Shown here one piece after another: positions 4,491-48,962 of a stretch of 64,000 bases of DNA. The notes under the pieces are model-generated. The model did not search any database. It worked only from the letters and a program-made list of their open reading frames with translations, and had not been told where the DNA came from. A program made the position numbers and the translations under genes. This DNA is from Mobula hypostoma (Eukaryota). The first letter of the stretch is position 1. Every line of letters begins with the position of its first letter. The stretch is taken from contig NC_086097.1 of the NCBI RefSeq assembly GCF_963921235.1, positions 171,060,001 to 171,124,000 on the forward strand, read 5' to 3'.

Positions 4491-5335
4491 ACCCACAAAA
4501 AAGGCTGGAGGAATTCAGCAGGTCAGGCAGCATTTACTGAGGGAGGGAGGGAAACACAAAATGCTGGAGGAACTCAGAAGATCAGGCAGCACCTATGGAG
4601 AGGAATAAACAGTTGATGTTTCAGGCCGAGATCCTCCATCAGCTCTCAGCCCAAACCACTGACTGTTTATTCATTTACATAGATGCTGCCTGACCTGCTG
4701 AGTTCTTGCTGCATTTTGAGTGCCTTGCCCTGGATTTCCAGCATCTGCAGAATCACGTGTGTTTATAATTTACAGAGGCAAAAAGATAATCAATGTTTCA
4801 GGCTGAGACCCTTCATCAGGACTGGAAATTTTTGGAAACCACTTCCCTCTGCTTTTATCACCCCATTCCCCTGTTTCATCTTGTGCTTGTAGCCTCTTAA
4901 TCCCTTCCCCCTTCCCCCCTCCCCCCTCCCCCCCACACCCTACCCCCACGCCCCACCCCCACGCTCTCGACAGCACGTCTTCTTCACATCCCTCCCTCTG
5001 ATTCCCTGCATCTTTCCCTTTTTTCCACTGTCTATTGTTCTCTCCTGTCAGATTCCTTCATCTTCAGCTGTTGCCTATTCCATCTCTCACCACTGTTTTT
5101 CCCCCTCACCTGGACTCTCCCATCATTCACCACCTCCTGCTCCTCCCTCTCCTTCTATCATTTCCTTCTGGCTTCTGCCCTCTTTCTTTCCCTGCCTGAT
5201 GAAGGATCTCAGCCTGAAACATCGACTGCTTCTGCCTGACTTACTGAGTTCCTCCAGCCCTTTGTATGTATGTATTTCTCTCCATGTATGCTGCATAGCT
5301 TGCTAAGTTCCTCCAGCATTTTGTGTGTGTTGTGC
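4410..5335. mobile_element. Cluster of PLE terminal-repeat fragments in both orientations (fold-backs), with hammerhead-like motifs
   Basis: Repeated ATGCTGGAGGAACTCAGCAGGTCAGGCAGCATC and its complement; CTGATGAAGGATCTCAGCCTGAAACATCGACTG at about 5197-5229; complementary copy at about 4793-4825. Confidence 0.75.
4433..4488. repeat. (AC)n microsatellite
   Basis: About 28 AC units, directly visible. Confidence 0.98.
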
Positions 5336-24507: not shown

Positions 24508-25895
24508 ACAAACAAGAGAAAATCTGCAGATGCTAGAAATCCAAGCAACACACACAGAATGCTGGAGGAACTCAGCAGGTTAGGCAGCATCTATGGAAGA
24601 GTACAGTCGACGCTTTGGGCCGAGACCCTTCATTAAAACTGGAGAAAAAGACGAGGAGTCAGAGTAAGAAAGTTAGAGGAGGGAAGAAAGAACCACAAGG
24701 TGATAGGTGAAATTGGGAGGGGGTAGGGGTGAATTAAAGTTCTGGAAGTTGATTGGTGAAAGAGATCCAGGGCGGGAGAAGGGGAAATCTGATAGGAAAG
24801 GACAGGAGGCCTTGGAAGATAGAAAAGGGGGATGAGCACCAGAGGGAAGTGATAGGCAAACAAGGAGATAAGGTGAGAGAGGGAAATGGGAATGAGGAAT
24901 GCTGAAGAAGGGGGAGGGGGTCCTTACTGGAAGTTTGAGAAATCGATGTTCATGCCATAAGGTGTTGCTCTTCCAACTTGAGTGTGGTCTCATCGCGACA
25001 GTAGAGGAGGCCATGGACTGTGATGTTGGAATGGAAATGGCAAGTGGAATTTAAATGGGTGGCCACTGGGAGATCCCACTTTTCTGGCAGAAGCAGAATA
25101 AGTGCTCAGCGACGCGGTCTCCCAATATGTGTTGGGGATCACTGATACAGCGAGAGCAACGGACAGAGTATATGACCCCAACAGGCTCACAGGTGAAGTG
25201 TCGCCTCACCTGGAAGCACTGTTTGGGGCCCTGAGTGATAGTGAGGGAGGAGGTGTAGGGACAGGTGTAGCACTTGTTCTGCTTGCAAGGATAAGTGTCA
25301 GAAGGGAGATCAGTGGAGGGGGGGGAGTAAATGGATGAGGGGGTTGAATAGAGAGCGATCCCTGTGGAATGCAGAAAGTGGGGGAGGGGGAGGGAAAGAT
25401 GTGCTTGATGGTGGGATCCCACAGGAGATGGCGGAAGTTACGGAGGATTATGTACTGGATATAGAGGCTGGTGGGGTGGTAGGTGAGGACAAGAGGAATC
25501 CTATCCTTGGTGGGGTGGCGGACGATGGGGTGAAGGCAGATTTGCACGAAATGGAAGAGATGTGGGTGAGGACAGCATTGATGGTGGAGGAAGGGAAGCC
25601 TCTTTCCTTGAAGAAGGAGGACATCTCCTTCTTTCCAAAATGAATGCCTCATTCTGACAGCAGATGCAGTGGAGATGGAGGAATTGAGAGAAGGGGATAT
25701 TTTACATGTAACAGAGTGGGGAGAGGTATAGTCCAGGTAGCTGTGAGAATCAGCGGATTTATGATGGACACCAGTAGATAAGCTGTCTCCAAAGATAGAG
25801 GAAGGGAGATGGAGAAAGGGGAGGGAGGTGGTGGAAATGTACCAGGTAAATTTGAGGGCAGGGTAGAAATTGGAGGCAAAGTTGATGAAGTCATG
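24508..25895 (-). pseudogene. Degenerate Penelope-like element with terminal repeat
   Basis: YPCKQNKCYTCPYTSSLTITQGPKQCFQVRRHFTCEPVGVIYSVRCSRC; hammerhead-like motif remnant at about 24604-24640. Confidence 0.88.
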
Positions 25896-26059: not shown

Positions 26060-27325
26060 TAAATATTTTTATGAAAGTTGATGGTTCTGGATGGTGAGAA
26101 AGGTTGTCTAAAACAGGATGTAGATCATTTGGAAAGTTGGCCAGACCATTGCAGATGAATTTAATCCCATTAATTGTGAAGTGATACATTTTTGGAAATC
26201 AAATAAGGTCAGATTTAAACAGTATATGGTAGGGCACTCGAATCTGAATCAGCATCAGAACCAGAATCCGTTTTATTATCACTGGCAAATGACATAAATG
26301 TGTTGTTTTTCAGTAGCAGTACAGTGGAATACATAAAAATTACTGTCATTTAGAATAAGAAATATATGAAAAATAAATGAATTGTGCAAAATGAGAGCAA
26401 AATAGTGATGAGGTATTCATGGATTCAGGGACCTTTCAGGAATCTGATGATGGAGGGGAAGAAGCTGAAAATATTGAGTGTGCATCTATAGGTTCCTGTA
26501 TCTCTTCCAGGATGATAGTAATGAGAAGAGAACATGTCCTGGATGGAGAGGATCTATCAAGGACATCGATGAACAGAAGTACCTTGGTATTCAAGAATAA
26601 CATAGGTAGATAGAGTGGTGAAGAAGGCATATAGCATACTTGCCTTCATTGGTTAGGGCAAACAGTTAAAAAAGTTGGGACAATGTGTTGTGAATTTACA
26701 AAACCCTGTTTAGACAACACTTGGAGATGCAGCTGTGTGCATTTCTGGTCATCACACTGTGGAAAGGATATGATTGTGCCGGACTATATGCCGAGGAAAT
26801 CCACTGGGATGATGTCTGGAATGGAAGACCTTAATTATGAGTAAAGACTGGATTGTTTGAGTCTGTTTTTCCAGAATGAAGAAGGCTGAGAGATGAGCTG
26901 ATAGAGCTATGTAAAATTATATGGGCATTAATGGGGTTGAATATTTTTCCATGGTAGAGGTAGTAATAATAGCAGGGCATCGATTTAAGGTGAAAAAGAA
27001 AATATTTCAGAGGGAAAAAAGAACTTGAGGTGAAAGTTTTTACATAGACATGTTTAATATCTGGAACAACATACATCAAAGTTGCTGGTGAACGCAGCAG
27101 GCCAGGCAGCATCTATAGGAAGAAGCGCAGTCGACGTTTCAGGCCGAGACCCTTCGTTAATATCTGGAGCTCTGCTGGAGGAGGTGATGAAGTCAAGAAC
27201 AGTTGCACTGTTTAAGAGTTATTTAGACAGGCTCTGAAATAGGCAAGAGTGTGGACCTAAAGTGGGAAAATTGGATGGCATGGATCTGTGGACTGCTCTA
27301 TACTCGATGACTCTATTGTTCTATG
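26060..27325 (+). mobile_element. Degenerate CR1 RT region with nested Rex-like tail (about 26240-26570) and a young 91-bp PLE insert
   Basis: CR1 motifs (WQMNLIP.NCEVIHFG; CVHFWSSH) recognisable across the nested pieces. Confidence 0.65.
27066..27156 (-). mobile_element. 91-bp young PLE 3'-terminal insertion with 12-bp TSD
   Basis: TTAATATCTGGA at 27054-27065 and 27157-27168; insert nearly identical to the reverse complement of 41368-41456. Confidence 0.92.
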
Positions 27326-35676: not shown

Positions 35677-36657
35677 CCATAGAAAAACTACAGCACAGAA
35701 ACAGGCCTTTTGGCCCTTCTTGGCTGTGCCGAACCATTTTCTGCCTAGTCCCACTGAGCTGCACACGGACCATATCTCTCCATACACCTCCCATCCATGT
35801 ATCTGTCCAATTTATTCTTAAATGTTAAAAAAGAACCTGCATTTACCACCTCGTCTGGCAGCTCATTCCATACTCCCACCACTCTCTGTGTGAAGAAGCC
35901 CTCCCTAATGTTCCCTTTAAACTTTTCCCCCCTCACCTTTAACCCATGTCCTCTGGTTTTTTTCTCCCCTTGCCTCAGTGGAAAAAGCCTGCTTGCATTC
36001 ACTCTATCTATACCCATCATAATTTTATATACCTCTATCAAATCTCCCCTCATTCTTCTACGCTCCAGGGAATAAAGTCCTAACCTATTCAACCTTTCTC
36101 TGTAACTGAGTTTCTCAAGTCTTGGCAACATCCTTGTAAACCTTCTCTGCACTCTTTCAACCTTACTTATATCCTTCCTGTAATTTGGTGACCAAAACTG
36201 AACACAATACTCCAGATTCGGCCTCACCAATGCCTTATATAACTTCATCATAACATTACTTTGATTAATAAAGGCCAATGTACCAAAAGCTCTCTTTACG
36301 ACCCTATCTACCTGTGATGCCACTTTTAGGGAATTTTGTATCTGTATTCCCAGATTCCTCTGTTCTACTGCACTCCTCAGTGCCTTACCATTAACCCTGT
36401 ATGTTCTACCTTGGTTTGTCCTTCCAACATGGAATACCTCACACTTGTCTGTATTAAACTCCATCTGCCGTTTTTCAGCCCATTTTTCCAGCTGGTCCAA
36501 GTCCCTCTGCAGGCTCTGAAAACCTTCCTCACTGTCTACTACACCTCCAATCTTTGTATCATCAGCAAATTTGCTGATCCAATTTACCACATTATCATCC
36601 AGATCATTGATATAGATGACAAATAACAATGGACCCAGCACTGATCCCTGTGGCACA
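35677..36657 (-). mobile_element. Young 5'-truncated CR1 LINE inserted into a SINE
   Basis: Uninterrupted 303-codon frame plus 3' tail; SINE halves at about 35580-35676 and 36660-36825. Confidence 0.92.
35745..36656 (-). CDS. CR1 ORF2 reverse transcriptase C-terminal part (truncated, not a functional gene)
   Basis: VPQGSVLGPLLFVIYINDL...SKFADDTKIGG...LVRPNLEYCVQFWSP. Confidence 0.85.
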   Translation of the reverse strand: MPQGSVLGPLLFVIYINDLDDNVVNWISKFADDTKIGGVVDSEEGFQSLQRDLDQLEKWAEKRQMEFNTDKCEVFHVGRTNQGRTYRVNGKALRSAVEQRNLGIQIQNSLKVASQVDRVVKRAFGTLAFINQSNVMMKLYKALVRPNLEYCVQFWSPNYRKDISKVERVQRRFTRMLPRLEKLSYRERLNRLGLYSLERRRMRGDLIEVYKIMMGIDRVNASRLFPLRQGEKKTRGHGLKVRGEKFKGNIREGFFTQRVVGVWNELPDEVVNAGSFLTFKNKLDRYMDGRCMERYGPCAAQWD

Positions 36658-36849
36658 GGGACCTACCAATGTGTATAGCTTCAGGATGTGGGAGGAAATC
36701 AGAGGAATTCCATGGGGTCACAGGGAGAATGCTCAGGCTCCACATGGTCAACACCAGAGCTCACATCAAACCCCAGTTACTGAAGCTGTAAGGCAGCAGT
36801 ACTAACTTTTCTGCCACTGTGCAGCCCTGACACCAACCAACTCCATTTG

Positions 36850-37590: not shown

Positions 37591-39324
37591 AACAATTTAA
37601 TTTTTAGATCAAAGCAGAAAAAAATTACCCAATCTGTATAAATGTTTCACATTGTTTTTTTTAACTGTTTACTGTGCTGTGCATTCAGTACATCCCATTT
37701 GCAGTGCGTATGTAAAGCAAATGATTTGCGTGCCTGTGTTTTATATAACTGCTATTCTGCCTTCCCCCATCCAGCTCACTTCAGTGATTCCATGACTTAA
37801 GTCTTTCCATAATAGTTTAAGCAGTTGAGTTTAACTGCTGCTGTGGGTCAGTATTATGAATGGATTTATGACACAGGCTCATCATCTGATTTTGTTTATA
37901 CTCATACTTATGATGAACGTTTCCATTATCTCATCAGCTGGGGGACTAGAGCGCAAAGACCTTCCTCATGCAGTGAAGCAGTCATCATACTTTACTGCTT
38001 TGTTCTTTTGCCAGCAGGAAACACAGCCCTCTGCTCCCTCCACCACCCACCCCCACAACGAAACACCTGCCAAAACTGCACAATGAACTACTGCAGACAT
38101 GAGAGATTGCAGATGTTGGAATCTGGGGCCAGAGAAAAAAGTGCTGGAGGAACTCTGTGGATTAGGTAGATTCTGTGGAGGGCCCACCAATCTTCTACCA
38201 ACATTTCCCCTTCTCCCTCATCTGCTTGTGACCACTCCTCACCTGTCAAGGTCTTGCTTCTCCTTCCTCATCCTTTATACTGCCAGTGTCTCCTCTATAT
38301 TTTCCAGATGGATCGTCTTGACTCAAAATGTGTTTTATCTATTTTTCTACAGAGATACTGCCTGACCCACTGATTTCTTCCAGCATCTTGTTTTTAAAAC
38401 AACTATCACTGGGTTGTGGGCACATTAGACTAAGTTTTGAAAAAAATACTAAATGTGTAATGTCACACACCACTGATCTCACTATCTTCTGTATCTGGAA
38501 GGTTTTACCTGACTGCAACAATGTCAGTCAGAATGCTCTCCACTGTACATCTATAAAAAAAATTGCAGGAGTCCTTGGTAACATACGAAATACAATTTCC
38601 TAATTCCTATTTCTTCTAATTCCCTTCTTGAGTTCTTTTCTAGCTTCTTTATAATCCTCCAGGGTTTCATTTGATTTTTATCTCCTAAACCTTTATAAGA
38701 TTTTGGAAGCAAAAATCAAATGTTAAAGACAAGATGACAATAAATTTTGATCGTAACTGCCATTGATAAAAAGTGCTTTGATTCAAGATTCAAGATTTAA
38801 GACTGTTTAATGTTATTTCCAGTACACTGGTGTAAAGGAGAACATAATAATTGTTACTCCAGATCCAATGCACCACAAAAAAAAACATAATAATAAGAAA
38901 CACACACAATAAATATAAATGGATAAGATAGCTTATATTCATGGATAGACTGTACATCCATAAAGTGACATACATAAGGTGACTCTTTATTTTTGTTATC
39001 CAGCAAATGTAAATGTCTAATTTTCCTTCTCAAGAAGAACTAACAATAGTTCATTTAGCATGACAGAGTACTACAGGAACAGTCACTTCAGATTTCTGAA
39101 TGGCCCATGAACCCATAAATACCACCACACTATTCCTCTTGGCATTATTTAATCATTCACTTACTTGTTTATTGTAACTTATAATTATATTCTATTTTGT
39201 ACTGTACTGCTGCCATGAAATAACAAATTTCACAACATATGTCAGTGAATGATAAACTTGATAAACCTGATTCACTTGTCAGTGTTGGCTGGACAATGGC
39301 CGTTTTTCATGCTGAACTCAGACA

Positions 39325-39545
39325 CTGAGCTGCACTCACCTGCTCTGTCCTGTACTGACCTGCACGGACCTGCACTTGCCTGCTCTGATCTGTTCTCACC
39401 TGCTTTCACCTGCACTGACCAGCACTCACCTGCAGTCATTTATTGATCTGCACTCACCTGCACTGACCAGCACTCACCTGCAGTCATTTATTGATCTGCA
39501 CTCACCTGCACTGACCAGCACTGACTTTCACTGACCTGCACTCAC
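39325..39545. repeat. Degenerate 10-bp tandem repeat (TGCACTCACC/TGCACTGACC) with an exact 48-bp duplication
   Basis: Directly visible. Confidence 0.85.
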
Positions 39546-39778
39546 ACACTGTGGAAGCTCTTCACCTTGTCTGCTAGAGCAAACCCATGCCTTCCTTCAT
39601 CCCTCCTGATTTTCCTCTTGTGCTCTCTTGCATTTCTTATATTCCCAAGTATCTCATTTGTTCCTGCCTGCCTATACCTATTGTGCACCTTTTTCTTTTT
39701 CTCAACCAGAGCCTCAATATGTCTCAAAAACCAAGACTGCCTAAACCTGTTATCCTTTTCTTTTATTTTCTTTTTTGA

Positions 39779-41062
39779 CCTAATCAGTTCCCCTCTACCA
39801 CCACTCTGCTCCGTCTAGCGGAATTAGTCCTTACTCTTAATAATTTCTCCTTTTGCTCCTCCCATTTCCTCCAAACTAAAGGTGTAGCTATGGGCACCCG
39901 TATGGGTCCTAGCTATGCCTGCCTTTTTGTTGGGTTTGTGGAACAATCTATGTTCCGTGCCTATTCTGGTATCTGTCCCCCACTTTTCCTTCGCTACATC
40001 GACAACTGCGTTGGCGCTGCTTCCTGCACGCATGCAGAACTCGTTGACTTTATTAACTTTGCCTCCAACTTTCACCCTGCCCTCAAGTTTACCTGGTCCA
40101 TTTCCAACACCTCCCTCCCCTTTCTAGATCTTTCTGTCCCTGTCTCTGGAGACAGCTTATCCATTGATGTCTACTATAAGCCTACTGACTCACACAGCTA
40201 TCTGGACTATTCCTCTTCTCACCCTGTCTCTTGCAAAAACGCCATCCCCTTCTCGCAATTCCTCCGTCTCTGCCGCATCTGCTCTCAGGATGAGGCTTTT
40301 CATTCTAGGACGAGGGAGATGCCTTCATTTTTTAAAGAAAGGGGCTTCCCTTCCTCCACTATCAACTCTGCTCTTAAACGCATCTCCTCCATTTCACGTA
40401 CATCTGCTCTCACTCCATCCTCCCACCACCCCACTAGGAATAGGGTTCCCCTGGTCCTCACCTACCACCCCACCAGCCTCCGGGTCCAACATATTATTCC
40501 CCATAACTTCCGCCACCTCCAACGGGATCCCACCACTAAGCACATCTTTCCCTCCCCCCCTCTCTCTGCATTCCGCAGGGATCGCTCCCTACACAACTCC
40601 CTTGTCCATTCGTCCCCCCCATCCCTCCCCACTGATCTCCCTCCTGGCGCTTATCCGTGTAAGCGGAACAAGTGCTACACATGGCCTTACACTTCCTCCC
40701 TTACCACCATTCAGGGCCCCAAACAGTCCTTCCAGGTGAGGCATCACTTCACCTGTGAGTCGACTGGGGTGATATACTGCGTCCGGTGCTCCCGATGTGG
40801 CCTTTTATATATTGGTGAGACCCGACGCAGACTGGGAGACCGCTTTGCTGAACATCTACGCTCTGTCCACCAGAGAAAGCAGGATCTCCCAGTGGCCACA
40901 CATTTTAATTCCACATCCCATTCCCATTCTGACATGTCTATCCACGGCCTCCTCTACTGTAAAGATGAAGCCACAATCAGGTTGGAGGAACAACACCTTA
41001 TATTCCGTCTGGGTAGCCTCCAACCTGATGGCATGAACATCGACTTCTCTAACTTCCGCTAA
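39779..41062 (+). CDS. PLE reverse transcriptase (motifs B-E, thumb) + GIY-YIG endonuclease; 5'-truncated; catalytic YIDD reads YIDN
   Basis: QTKGVAMGTRMGPSYA, LRYIDN, LPFLDL, VYYKPTDSHSYL, GVIYCVRCSRCGLLYIGET; frame is open 37 codons upstream of the ATG at 39890. Confidence 0.88.
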   Translation, partial: PNQFPSTTTLLRLAELVLTLNNFSFCSSHFLQTKGVAMGTRMGPSYACLFVGFVEQSMFRAYSGICPPLFLRYIDNCVGAASCTHAELVDFINFASNFHPALKFTWSISNTSLPFLDLSVPVSGDSLSIDVYYKPTDSHSYLDYSSSHPVSCKNAIPFSQFLRLCRICSQDEAFHSRTREMPSFFKERGFPSSTINSALKRISSISRTSALTPSSHHPTRNRVPLVLTYHPTSLRVQHIIPHNFRHLQRDPTTKHIFPSPPLSAFRRDRSLHNSLVHSSPPSLPTDLPPGAYPCKRNKCYTWPYTSSLTTIQGPKQSFQVRHHFTCESTGVIYCVRCSRCGLLYIGETRRRLGDRFAEHLRSVHQRKQDLPVATHFNSTSHSHSDMSIHGLLYCKDEATIRLEEQHLIFRLGSLQPDGMNIDFSNFR

Positions 41063-41358
41063 GGCCCCACCTCCCCCTTGTACCCCATCTGTTACTCTTT
41101 TTATGCACACATTCTTTCTCTCACTCTCCTTTTTCTCCCTCTGTCCCTCTGAATATACCTCTTGCCCATCCTCTGGGTCAACCCCCCCCCCTTGTCTTTC
41201 TTCCCGGACCTCCTGTCCCATGATCCTCTCGTATCCCCTTTTGCCTATCACCTGTCCAGCTCTCGGCTCTATCCCTCCCCCTCCTGTCTTCTCCTATCAT
41301 TTTGCATCTCCCCCTCCCCCTCCAGCTTTCAAATCCCTTACTCACTCTTCCTTCAGTT

Positions 41359-41394
41359 AGTCCTGATGAAGGGTCTCGGCCTGAAACGTCGACT
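41359..41394 (+). ncRNA. Minimal type I hammerhead ribozyme-like motif in the PLE terminal repeat
   Basis: AGTC-CTGATGA-AGG(GTCTCGG)CCT-GAAA-C-GTC-GACT: both core boxes, stem I and stem II present; helix III reduced to the palindrome ACGT. Confidence 0.7.
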
Positions 41395-41715
41395 GCGCCT
41401 CTTCCTATAGATGCTGCTTGGCCTGCTGCGTTCACCAGCAACTTTGATGTATGTTGATCCTTTTCTTTTATTCTGACAGGTACATACAAACTTCGTTTGT
41501 TCAAAATTTTACTTCTGAAGGCCTCCCATTGTCAGAATATACCTGCCCCAATCCACAAGTGCCAGATTCTTTCTGATACCATTTCTGCTTCACCACTTCT
41601 TGGGAACCTTGCAAACAATGAAATATTTTGGGAGTGTGGAAATTTTTGGGAGTGTGTAATGTGGGAAACACTGCAACAAACATATGTTTAGCAAGTTCAT
41701 ATGTACAGCATTGTG

Positions 41716-42032
41716 GGCATGTGGCCAAGTGGTTAAGGCATTCGACTAGTGATCTGAAGGTCATGAGTTCGAACCCCAGCTGAGGCAGCATGTTGTGTCC
41801 TTGAGCAAGGCACTTAACCACACAGTGCTCTGCGACGACACTGGTGCCAAACTGTATCGGCCCTTGCCCTTCCCTTGGACAACATCGGTGTCATGGAGAG
41901 GGGAGACTTGCAGCATGGGCAACTGCCAGTCTTCCATACAACCTTGCCCAGGCCTGCGCCCTGGAGAGGGAAGACTTTCCAGGCACAGATCCGTGGTCTC
42001 GCAAGACTAACGGTTGCCTTTACTTTTACTTT
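41716..42032 (+). mobile_element. Full-length tRNA-derived SINE with 16-bp TSD
   Basis: A box TGGCCAAGTGG, B box GTTCGAACCC, (TTTAC/TTTTAC)n tail; TATGTACAGCATTGTG at 41700-41715 and 42033-42048. Confidence 0.92.
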
Positions 42033-46659: not shown

Positions 46660-47300
46660 CCATAAGACCATTCAACCCACCAAGTCTGCTCTGCCATTTG
46701 ATCACGACTTATTTATTTTCCCATGGATCTCCATCCTCCTGCCTTATTCCATTAAACTTAGATGTTCTAAGTAATTAAGAACCTCTCAACCAACCCAATA
46801 TATACCTAATGACTTAGTCTCCAAAGCTGTCTGTGATAATTAAATCCACAATTCCATCACCCTGTAGCAGAAGCACCCAGACTTGCAGCATGGTAGTGCT
46901 GTGTAATGCCTTACTACGTTAACAAAATCGGTTCAATTCCCGCTATACTCTTTAAGAAGTCTACATTCTCCCCTGACTGCATGGGTTTCCTCTGGGTGCT
47001 CCAGTTTCCTCCCACGTTCCAAAAGACATATAGGTTAGTAATTTGAGGGCATGCTATGTTGGCGGCAGAAGTGGGCTTATGGGCTGCTCCCAGCACACTA
47101 TGTTGCTCATTCATGCAAACAACACACTTCACCGTATGCACATGCAAGAAATAAAGTTGATCTCTAATATGATATCTTACTTCTGTAAATAAATTCATCT
47201 TCATCTCTGTTCTCAAGGGATATTCTTCTATTCTTAATCTGTGTGCTCTGGTCCTAGACTCTCCCAATATTGGAAACACATTCTCCATGTATACTCCATC
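46660..47300 (-). mobile_element. CR1 3' end with nested tRNA-derived SINE (about 46880-47170, + strand)
   Basis: ENVFPILGESRTRAHRLRI; SINE with GGTTCAATTCCCG B box and V-like core. Confidence 0.7.
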
Positions 47301-47304
47301 TGGG

Positions 47305-48962
47305 ATTTGAAGATGTTGGAGTCCATTATTAAGCTTGGGATTTTGAGGTACCTGGAGGCACATTATAAAATAGGCCAATGTCAGTATGATTTCCTTGAGG
47401 GGAAATCTTGCCTGACATATTTATTGGAATTCTTTGAGGAAATAACAATCAGGATAGGCAAAAGAGAGTCAGTGGATGTTGTTTACTTGGATTTTCAGAA
47501 GGCCTTTGAAAAGGTGCCACACATGAGGCTGCTAAGCAAGATAAAGCCCATGGTACTACAGAAAAGATGCTAGCATGGATAGAATATTGGCTGACTGGCA
47601 GGAGGCAGAAAGTGGGAACAAAGGGGACCTTTCCTGGTTGGCAGTCAGTGGCTAGTGGTGTTCTACAGGGATCAGTGTTGGGACTGCTTGTTTAACGTTA
47701 TATGTCAATGATTTGCATGATGGAGTTGATGGCTTTGTGGTCATATTTGTAGACAATATAAAGATAGGTGGAGTGGCAGATGGCGTTGAGGAAGCAGGGT
47801 GTCTGCAGAAGGACTTAGACAGATTGAGAGAATGAGCAAAGAAGTGACAGATGGAATATAGTGTAGAGAACTGCAGAAGGAGTAAAGGCATAAATTATTT
47901 TCTAAATGGGGACAAAATTCAAAAATCAGAGGTGCAAAGGGACTTGAAGGTCTTTGTGCAGGACTGCCTAAAGCTTAACTTGCAGGTTGAGCCAGTGGTA
48001 AGATGGCAAATGCAATGTTAGCATTCGTTTTGAGAGGATTTCAAATATAAAAGCAAGGATGTAATGCTAAGCCTTTATAAGGCATTGGTCAGAGGGTACG
48101 TGGAATATTGTGAACATTGTTGGGCGCCTTGTCTAAGAAAAGATGTGCTGGCTTTGGAGAAGGTCCAGTGGATGTTTACAAGAATGATTCTGGGAATGAA
48201 AAGGTTTACATATGTTTGATGGCTCTGGGCCTGTACTCACATGAAATTAGAAGAATGAAGGTCGATCACAGTCAGAATCAGGTTTAATATCATTAGCATA
48301 TGTTGTGAATTTTTTGTTTTTGCAGCAGCAATACAATGAAATACATAGAAAAAGACAAAAAATGAATTACAATAAGTATATATATATATATATATTAGTT
48401 AAATTAAACAATTTATGCAAAAATTAAAATTAAAAAGTGATGAAGTAGTGTTTATGGGTTCAATGTCCATTCAGAAATTGGATGGCAAAGGGGAAAACAG
48501 CTGCTTCTGAATCGTTAAGTGTGTGACTTCAGGCTTGTGTTCTTCCTTCCTGATGATAGCAATGAGAACAAGGCATGATCTCATTGAAACTTATCAAATA
48601 TTGAATGACCTAGATAATGGTAATGTGGAGAGAATGTTTACTATAATGGGGTAGTCTAGGCCAGAGGGCACTGCCTCAGGACAGAAGGACATCCATCTAG
48701 AATGGAAATGAGTAGGAATTGCTTTAACCAGAGGGTAGTGAATATGTGGAATTCATTGTCACAGACAGCTGCAGAGACCAAGTCATTGGGTATATTTAAA
48801 GAGGAGGTTGGTCAGATCAAGATTAGTCAAGGCATTAAAAGGTTAAGAGGAGAAAGCAGTGGAGTTTGGGTTGAGAGGGATAATAAAATAGCCATGGTGG
48901 AATGGTGGCGCTCACTCAATGGGCTGAATGGACTAATTCTGCTCCTATGTGTTATGGTCTTA
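47305..48962 (+). pseudogene. Degenerate CR1 ORF2 (RT) and 3' UTR with nested Rex-like tail (about 48270-48578)
   Basis: GKSCLTYLLEFFEEIT...VDVVYLDFQKAFEKVPHMRLL; SGVLQGSVLG. Confidence 0.88.

Follow-up and report, generated by a model that had tools for sequence, protein, structure and literature searches.

The window, meaning the whole stretch of 64,000 nucleotides analysed here, carries on its plus strand a 5'-truncated copy of a Penelope-like element, 1689 bp in length (39768-41456) and probably of Neptune type. This copy is bounded by a 16-bp target-site duplication whose left (39752-39767) and right (41457-41472) plus-strand copies are exact repeats of each other, and the duplicated sequence is present exactly twice in the window. 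The target was an A/T-rich stretch of an older repeat, a LINE-like minus-strand frame (39560-39767 and 41457-41531) that stops and resumes in the letters of the duplication, flanking the insertion. We take this older frame to be CR1-like; Pfam gave no name for the flanking frame. The idea that the element landed just ahead of an exon at 41480, in the 3' splice site of a host gene, was rejected: both flanks belong to a single older repeat frame on the minus strand and are at repeat-level depth. In a crude scan for plus-strand exons, no host gene came up nearby.

Four contig runs on 39650-41750 yielded 300,137, 264,686, 18,417 and 13,634 contigs. The 300,137 contigs derived from one DNA run, with 57,183 of them at 99% identity or more, and two runs were guessed to be of RNA type; the contigs show no RNA ends, strand or level. 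Both flanks of the insertion were at repeat-level depth in these runs, and the unique flank at 41638-41708 was barely covered in the RNA-type runs, a shortfall that points neither way. Related contigs had loose ends at 39777 and behind 41456, the latter in 381 (X1), 81 (X10) and 62 (X12) contigs that continued into mixed sequence with an agreement of 0.45-0.5. One X1 contig covered 41431-41735 with no differences, and a contig of 445 nt from organism B matched only from 41457 on, as an empty site would. Repeat-level depth resumed from 41709, where a plus-strand stretch (41717-41787) with a tRNA-like head, scored at 24.5 bits by the Rfam tRNA model (below gathering) and not called as a gene by ARAGORN, is probably a tRNA-derived SINE. 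Other repeats in the window include non-LTR reverse transcriptase (RT) fragments at 35745-36662 (minus strand) and 47238-47573 (plus strand), with Pfam RVT_1 matches at E 1.9e-12 and 0.00027, and, at 39323-39542, a degenerate tandem array with a 10-base period that includes a perfect higher-order repeat of 48 bp.

The insertion contains a 427-aa open frame (39779-41062, plus strand) that encodes the C-terminal part of the RT, a Cys linker and a GIY-YIG endonuclease, the latter matched at E 0.00066, under the Pfam cut-off. The catalytic YIDD is YIDN in the window copy (39995-40006), and the last Cys of the CX4CXXC linker is Trp (40682-40684); at position 40684, 98% of X1 depth carries a letter other than that of the window copy. 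Longer relatives of this frame numbered 107, with a best identity of 53% and annotation as RT and partly as GIY-YIG. In protein alignments the CX4CXXC linker and the CCHH residues were common to the frame and its relatives, and RT is followed by a C-terminal GIY-YIG in a single frame, as expected of Neptune. By sequence the carrier appears to be of Neptune type, on linker and CCHH marks that Neptune and Nematis both have.

Downstream of the frame lies a pyrimidine-rich 3' region (41063-41357, plus strand), part of the pseudo-LTR by its sequence, that ends in a pyrimidine tract followed by AG. This region varies by sub-family, with 46-64% identity in three older window copies. The insertion closes with a stretch (41396-41456, plus strand) at the end of which reverse transcription probably started. 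The 5' repeat is missing because the window copy is 5'-truncated, and this truncation together with YIDN leaves the copy unable to move by itself. Signs of youth were a CpG observed/expected ratio of 0.52 in the frame versus 0.25 in the window, at least nine nearly private changes over the 1689 bp (40 of 230 variant rows listed) and the organism B contig that resembles an empty site. In an earlier note on this DNA, a young Penelope-like element was said to end in a hammerhead ribozyme, and the RT/GIY-YIG frame, the 16-bp duplication and the CpG ratio bear this out.

The hammerhead motif is exact at 41359-41394 (36 bases), with the letters and boxes that had been claimed for it, and occurs only once in the 64-kb window when up to three mismatches are allowed. 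All of its parts lie on the plus strand. The 5' strand of stem I (41358-41362) pairs with the 3' strand (41391-41395); the 4-bp core of 41359-41362 with 41391-41394 was confirmed as proposed and is refined by a possible fifth pair, U.G at 41358/41395, with a pair probability of 0.62 in folding. The core box CUGAUGA (C3 to A9, 41363-41369), with its variable position 7 at 41367, is followed by an unpaired A41370 and by stem II with its 4-nt loop (41371-41382). The GAAA box (41383-41386) runs into the palindrome ACGU (41386-41389), which replaces helix III without a loop, again as first described, and C17 is at 41390. From the hammerhead consensus, the cut is predicted to fall after C41390. A second palindrome, GUCGAC at 41388-41393, spans the predicted cut site, and the self-duplex of the 3' part of the motif was calculated at -10.3 kcal/mol versus -1.7 for ACGU alone.

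Stem II had been read as 3 bp, and this reading was not upheld. Behind the unpaired A41370, bases 41371-41374 pair with 41379-41382 (G.U, G-C, G-C, U.G), and this 4-bp register had a folding probability of 0.86-0.95 versus 0.03 for the 3-bp register, whose closing A-U pair forms in just one of the 12 motifs aligned below. The probable stem II is thus one of 4 bp, set off by a bulged A and starting with G.U, which here and in a copy at 27 kb occupies the G10.1-C11.1 position. The following marks of the minimal hammerhead (min-HHR) class were present: CUGANGA and GAAA boxes, an NUH triplet and type I order; no helix III loop, with complementary 15.2/16.2 (ACGU); an unpaired nucleotide between 9 and 10.1; and a location in the pseudo-LTR, starting 301 nt downstream of the frame stop, with the cut 66 nt before the insertion 3' end. 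The motif is not a canonical type I hammerhead, as it has neither a helix III loop nor an Rfam hammerhead match; the nine Rfam matches in the window up to E 10 included no hammerhead family. A search of solved structures likewise gave no match.

Short boxes of this kind can arise by chance, and the bare two-box pattern was indeed common, with 19 window matches versus 8.67 expected; the missing Rfam match would also fit such an origin. We scanned both strands with a loop-less descriptor that calls for at least 3 bp in both stems and complementary 15.2/16.2. It matched once in the window versus never in 300 dinucleotide shuffles of the window, and allowing one change in the first box gained no extra window match. 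The motif also scored 45.1 bits with a motif model of which this copy is itself a part, it lies behind a Penelope-like frame, and it has counterparts with covarying stems in related loci. A chance arrangement is thus refuted, and we assign it practically no weight.

In the contig runs, the positions before 41359 and behind 41395 had the largest piles of loose ends in all four runs among the 24 loose-end rows listed, with 955, 694, 159 and 104 contigs at the former and 1276, 994, 239 and 153 at the latter. Divergent sub-families match the window copy over just these 36-37 bases, and their similarity to it breaks off at either end of stem I. Variation inside the motif was confined to one row, position 7, among the 40 of 230 variant rows listed, and C was the commoner letter at 41367 in all four runs. 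The depth bin holding the motif was the deepest in three of the four runs and the second deepest in X10, where depth is not a copy number.

The contigs also bear on a splice-gated reading for this hyper-amplified vertebrate Neptune family, in which the pyrimidine tract and AG before stem I act as a 3' splice site and the 3' region, from a donor located at the stop codon onward, is an intron in some sub-families. If true, splicing would release the core from inhibition by an upstream hairpin and also extend the frame through the ribozyme. Tract and AG do precede the core in divergent sub-families, GTAA stands at the stop of the 24.9-kb copy, and three contigs of the two RNA-type runs join 41056 to 41359, skipping exactly 302 bases; PMC4209133 offers a precedent in Drosophila virilis. 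However, one DNA contig of organism B has this joint too, a divergent 3' region would account for it equally well, the window copy has CT at the place of the donor, invertebrate relatives have no AG, and downstream bases are predicted to hide the fold likewise. No GT..AG joint was seen among the 15 joints listed. We consider splice gating very unlikely. Separately, one DNA and one RNA-type run contained a 340-base skip from 41022 to 41363, the ends of which share a 7-base word (41024-41030 and 41362-41368); this suggests a microhomology deletion that placed the core beside the endonuclease end.

Other copies of the element were found in the window. One of them, again young and of the main copy's sub-family, is an insertion of about 90 nt on the minus strand at 27067-27156 (97.8% identity over 89 nt) between the halves of a 12-bp duplication (27054-27065 and 27157-27168). 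It starts inside the core, without CUGA, crosses the cut site and has the same 3' end as the main copy. As both young copies run 66 nt past the cut, the RNA that was copied was either uncut or rejoined there, and two young copies cannot separate an uncut template from a cut-and-rejoined circle. An older copy with 73% identity (24545-25893, minus strand) holds a decayed motif at 24605-24640, and decayed motifs of older sub-families, both failing the descriptor, lie at 4786-4825 (minus strand, model E 3.8e-05) and 5191-5229 (plus strand, model E 0.0064). The motif model gave five window matches under E 0.01 including the main copy, and the other four were broken. No intact partner motif was found within the 64-kb window, nor did a master copy, whether tandem or full-length, come to light. 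For the three older copies in the window, identity of the motif versus the frame end was 83% versus 65%, 69% versus 71% and 67% versus 71%, so that excess conservation of the motif was clear in one of the three only.

A stretch at 41411-41439, which starts GATGCTGC and contains a 5-bp inverted repeat, is conserved in many older copies, where a spacer of variable length precedes it. In coral-type relatives, a similar word of 8 bases lies some 35 nt upstream of the apparent 3' end. This stretch may mark the protein-binding or priming signal.

Protein searches returned 12 and 63 loci, evidently animal contigs inside genome bins and metagenomes. Close loci (n=24) were defined by at least 45% identity, an endonuclease matched to at least residue 120 and at least 170 nt of following sequence. 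A same-strand match to the motif model followed the frame in 18 of these 24, with 12 of the 18 outside the model-building set by hand tally, and was absent from the other six. The motif mostly lay about 100-130 nt after the frame; many of the loci are near-duplicates from few hosts. The 18 distant loci with sufficient downstream sequence, at about 30-39% identity, all lacked a model match. With the descriptor, 14 same-strand matches were obtained in 201,987 bases of loci versus none in 30 shuffles, and the register with an unpaired A and a 4-bp stem II was used by all 20 descriptor matches in related loci. One motif (L032:4733-4777) has AUAU as an alternative palindrome, and several copies of one coral-type family (L032:2609-2648, L033, L034, L036, L093) carry a core variant CCGACGA, with C at position 4.

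The 21 descriptor matches (the window's own and 20 in loci) gave 12 distinct motifs for alignment. Under the corrected structure, 86.9% of cells were paired and two-sided changes occurred in eight of nine pairs. The inner three pairs of stem I were kept in all 12 motifs with 3-6 two-sided changes each, the 4-bp stem II register was paired in 100% of cells, and G-C occupied 10.1-11.1 in 11 of the 12. On three of five measures the pair counts surpassed each of 500 shuffles, and they surpassed every slid control; these counts lean upward because the motifs were picked with a descriptor requiring both stems and six of the 12 belong to one coral-type family.

Among 31 loci from a pattern scan of prokaryote genomes, three (L008, L016, L017) passed the loop-less descriptor, and two of these matched the protein. 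Viral contigs gave neither a protein relative nor a pattern match. Animal-type Penelope elements on contigs of GTDB bins (L008, L016, L032-L036, L039-L041) suggest host contamination of those bins. Spread over contigs of one bin labelled Gammaproteobacteria were 14 type I hammerhead-like motifs, nearly identical to one another, each having a fully looped helix III and a 6-bp stem I (L001, L003, L004, L010, L012-L014, L018, L020, L021, L023, L025, L027 and L028, around position 1501), with no Penelope protein match within 1.5 kb. They represent host DNA or else a bacterial ribozyme repeat present in many copies.

Folding was calculated for the motif alone, as a dimer and in context. The double-hammerhead fold had an energy of -12.9 kcal/mol versus -28.1 for the inactive dimer and -19.8 for two inactive monomers, and its weight in the folding ensemble was 0.000; a protein-free dimer is therefore unsupported by the energies. 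Stem I had a probability of 0.00 with at least 20 upstream bases and of 0.14-0.23 with short upstream but at least 20 downstream bases, and the inactive fold paired the core box with the CGUC end. The fold of the motif is thus predicted to be hidden in its native context. Several relatives likewise folded poorly in theirs. As secondary-structure energies omit the tertiary contacts of the core and any protein, and as relatives also fold poorly, these results argue against a protein-free reaction and not against the class.

By these models the window copy most likely does not cut, since it is single, is predicted to be held in inactive hairpins, has G.U at 10.1-11.1 and has a second palindrome across the cut. 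Any suggestion in the earlier note that this copy is likely to cleave is not supported: in addition it is 5'-truncated, and the double-hammerhead fold is not favoured in the calculations. On the opposite reading, the window copy would be active as a monomer or in trans and would cleave host transcripts of the locus. It is the sole motif to pass the descriptor among its relatives in the window, and the family is very abundant in contigs, including the two runs guessed to be of RNA type, so that partners in trans could exist. Against this, a monomer cannot form helix III, stem I was not predicted with native upstream bases, the 64 kb hold no intact partner, and the copy sits in an older repeat and not in a recognised gene. 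Activity of this kind is highly improbable.

Established here are the anatomy of the motif, the element that carries it, the target-site duplication, and a conservation among relatives that includes two-sided changes. We consider it likely that the motif is a pseudo-LTR min-HHR of a Neptune-type element, a passive passenger on a dead, 5'-truncated insertion, and that cleavage in the family is weak and conditional. In the proposed working, tandem or partial-tandem master copies would put the motif twice on one RNA, and the two motifs would swap strands, so that the two ACGU stretches pair to form helix III and both copies contribute to each stem I. The element's own protein would probably help, and weak, conditional cleavage after C17 would trim tandem or read-through transcripts. 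Reverse transcription would begin inside RNA left uncut at this site, some 66 nt downstream of it or further by a short 'tail'.

Alternatively, the motif may be kept for a non-catalytic job, as a structure or binding site beside the start of reverse transcription, with cutting no longer needed in the lineage. Such a role would fit insertions that cross the cut site, a predicted inactive fold that engages the core box with the CGUC end, and G.U at 10.1-11.1 in both young window copies. It would also fit published observations: anole core mutants left in vitro insertion unchanged and no RNA-seq read ends fell at the cut (PMC11167929), and Naiad elements thrive without the motif (10.1101/2021.04.23.441226). 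However, the core letters, the unpaired A and the palindrome were kept relative to invertebrate relatives at about 48% protein identity while the stems changed on both sides, and variation among copies fell on the consensus-free position 7, among the 40 of 230 variant rows listed. We regard a purely non-catalytic role as unlikely.

A further possibility is that both tandem motifs cut, that the unit is ligated to a circle and that reverse transcription of the circle restores the site. A circle accounts for intact insertion sites equally well as an uncut template does; it was proposed in PMC4209133 and has been shown for retrozymes with canonical hammerheads. Yet PMC4209133 reports low activity for minimal motifs, and in the sole reconstituted system uncut RNA was the main substrate (PMC11167929). 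A circular intermediate is quite unlikely, and we retain the weakly cleaving min-HHR with internal initiation on uncut RNA as our reading.

The class itself is known. The loop-less motif is the defining form of the min-HHR class of Cervera and De la Pena 2014 (PMC4209133), in which two copies are reasoned to provide helix III to each other, a single motif gave no cleavage, and dimers and trimers gave low cleavage. The assignment to minimal type I hammerheads of Penelope-like elements with dimer-type activity, and the predicted dimer register through ACGU, which the earlier note had put forward, thus correspond to a published class and model, and its question whether the loop-less variant was new is largely closed. 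The window motif shares with those in PMC4209133 the type I order, the absence of a helix III loop, the palindromic 15.2/16.2, the unpaired base after A9 that is described there, a stem I of 3-5 bp without a tertiary loop, and a pseudo-LTR location in mostly single, truncated copies. It differs from them in its G.U at 10.1-11.1, its short 4-bp stem II and its cut-site palindrome. The G10.1-C11.1 pair is highly conserved but not invariant in min-HHR, and G.U is also seen there in a few of the motifs listed in PMC4209133. The supplement text searched has no shark, skate or Callorhinchus row, and no description of the motif in sharks or rays in particular was found in the literature searched.

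Animal non-LTR retrozymes also have type I hammerheads, dimer-dependent in vertebrates, and are proposed to derive from Penelope pseudo-LTRs (PMC7229834, 10.64898/2026.07.22.740005). Those retrozymes are short tandem repeats with mostly canonical motifs, whereas the window motif is single and sits on a coding fragment, with no tandem array at the locus; the locus is not a non-LTR retrozyme. The retrozyme preprint found retrozymes in one chondrichthyan genome with a minimal descriptor, and its supplements may hold this family (10.64898/2026.07.22.740005).

The closest functional comparison is PAc, a Poseidon element of Anolis carolinensis, whose ribozyme cut only with the element's protein, and for which uncut RNA was the main template and reverse transcription started internally downstream of the cut (PMC11167929). 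Both elements have a pseudo-LTR hammerhead, insertion 3' ends past the cut, an A/T-rich target and an optional tail. The distance from cut to 3' end is 66 nt here versus 85-92 nt in PAc (111-118 minus 26). PAc belongs to the Poseidon clade and has no Cys linker, which the window element has, and its frame begins in the ribozyme, whereas the window ATG at 41366 leads to a stop after 14 codons. This ATG is lost wherever 41367 is C.

The class, the loop-less form, the dimer model and the presence in Neptune elements and vertebrates are already published, and the single locus is one more copy of a described motif. The abundance of the family suits statistics on insertion ends at the cut site and on selection of the core across master lineages. 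In Craig et al. 2021 (10.1101/2021.04.23.441226), a CX2-5CXXC linker and CCHH mark the Neptune and Nematis clades, and the window element resembles the Neptune clade in its RT, such a linker, a C-terminal GIY-YIG with CCHH and a pseudo-LTR hammerhead. It departs from that description in being truncated, in its Asn and Trp at two conserved places, and in its insertion into an A/T-rich older repeat with a clean 16-bp duplication and no microsatellite. The same CG/UC end appears in Fig. S3 of PMC4209133 in a coral Neptune element, fugu, lamprey, Xenopus and snake. The coral motif, from Acropora digitifera, equals those of three of our loci (L049, L064, L095) in core, stems and loop; these three elements are protein relatives of the window element, which gives indirect support for a placement in Neptune over Nematis.
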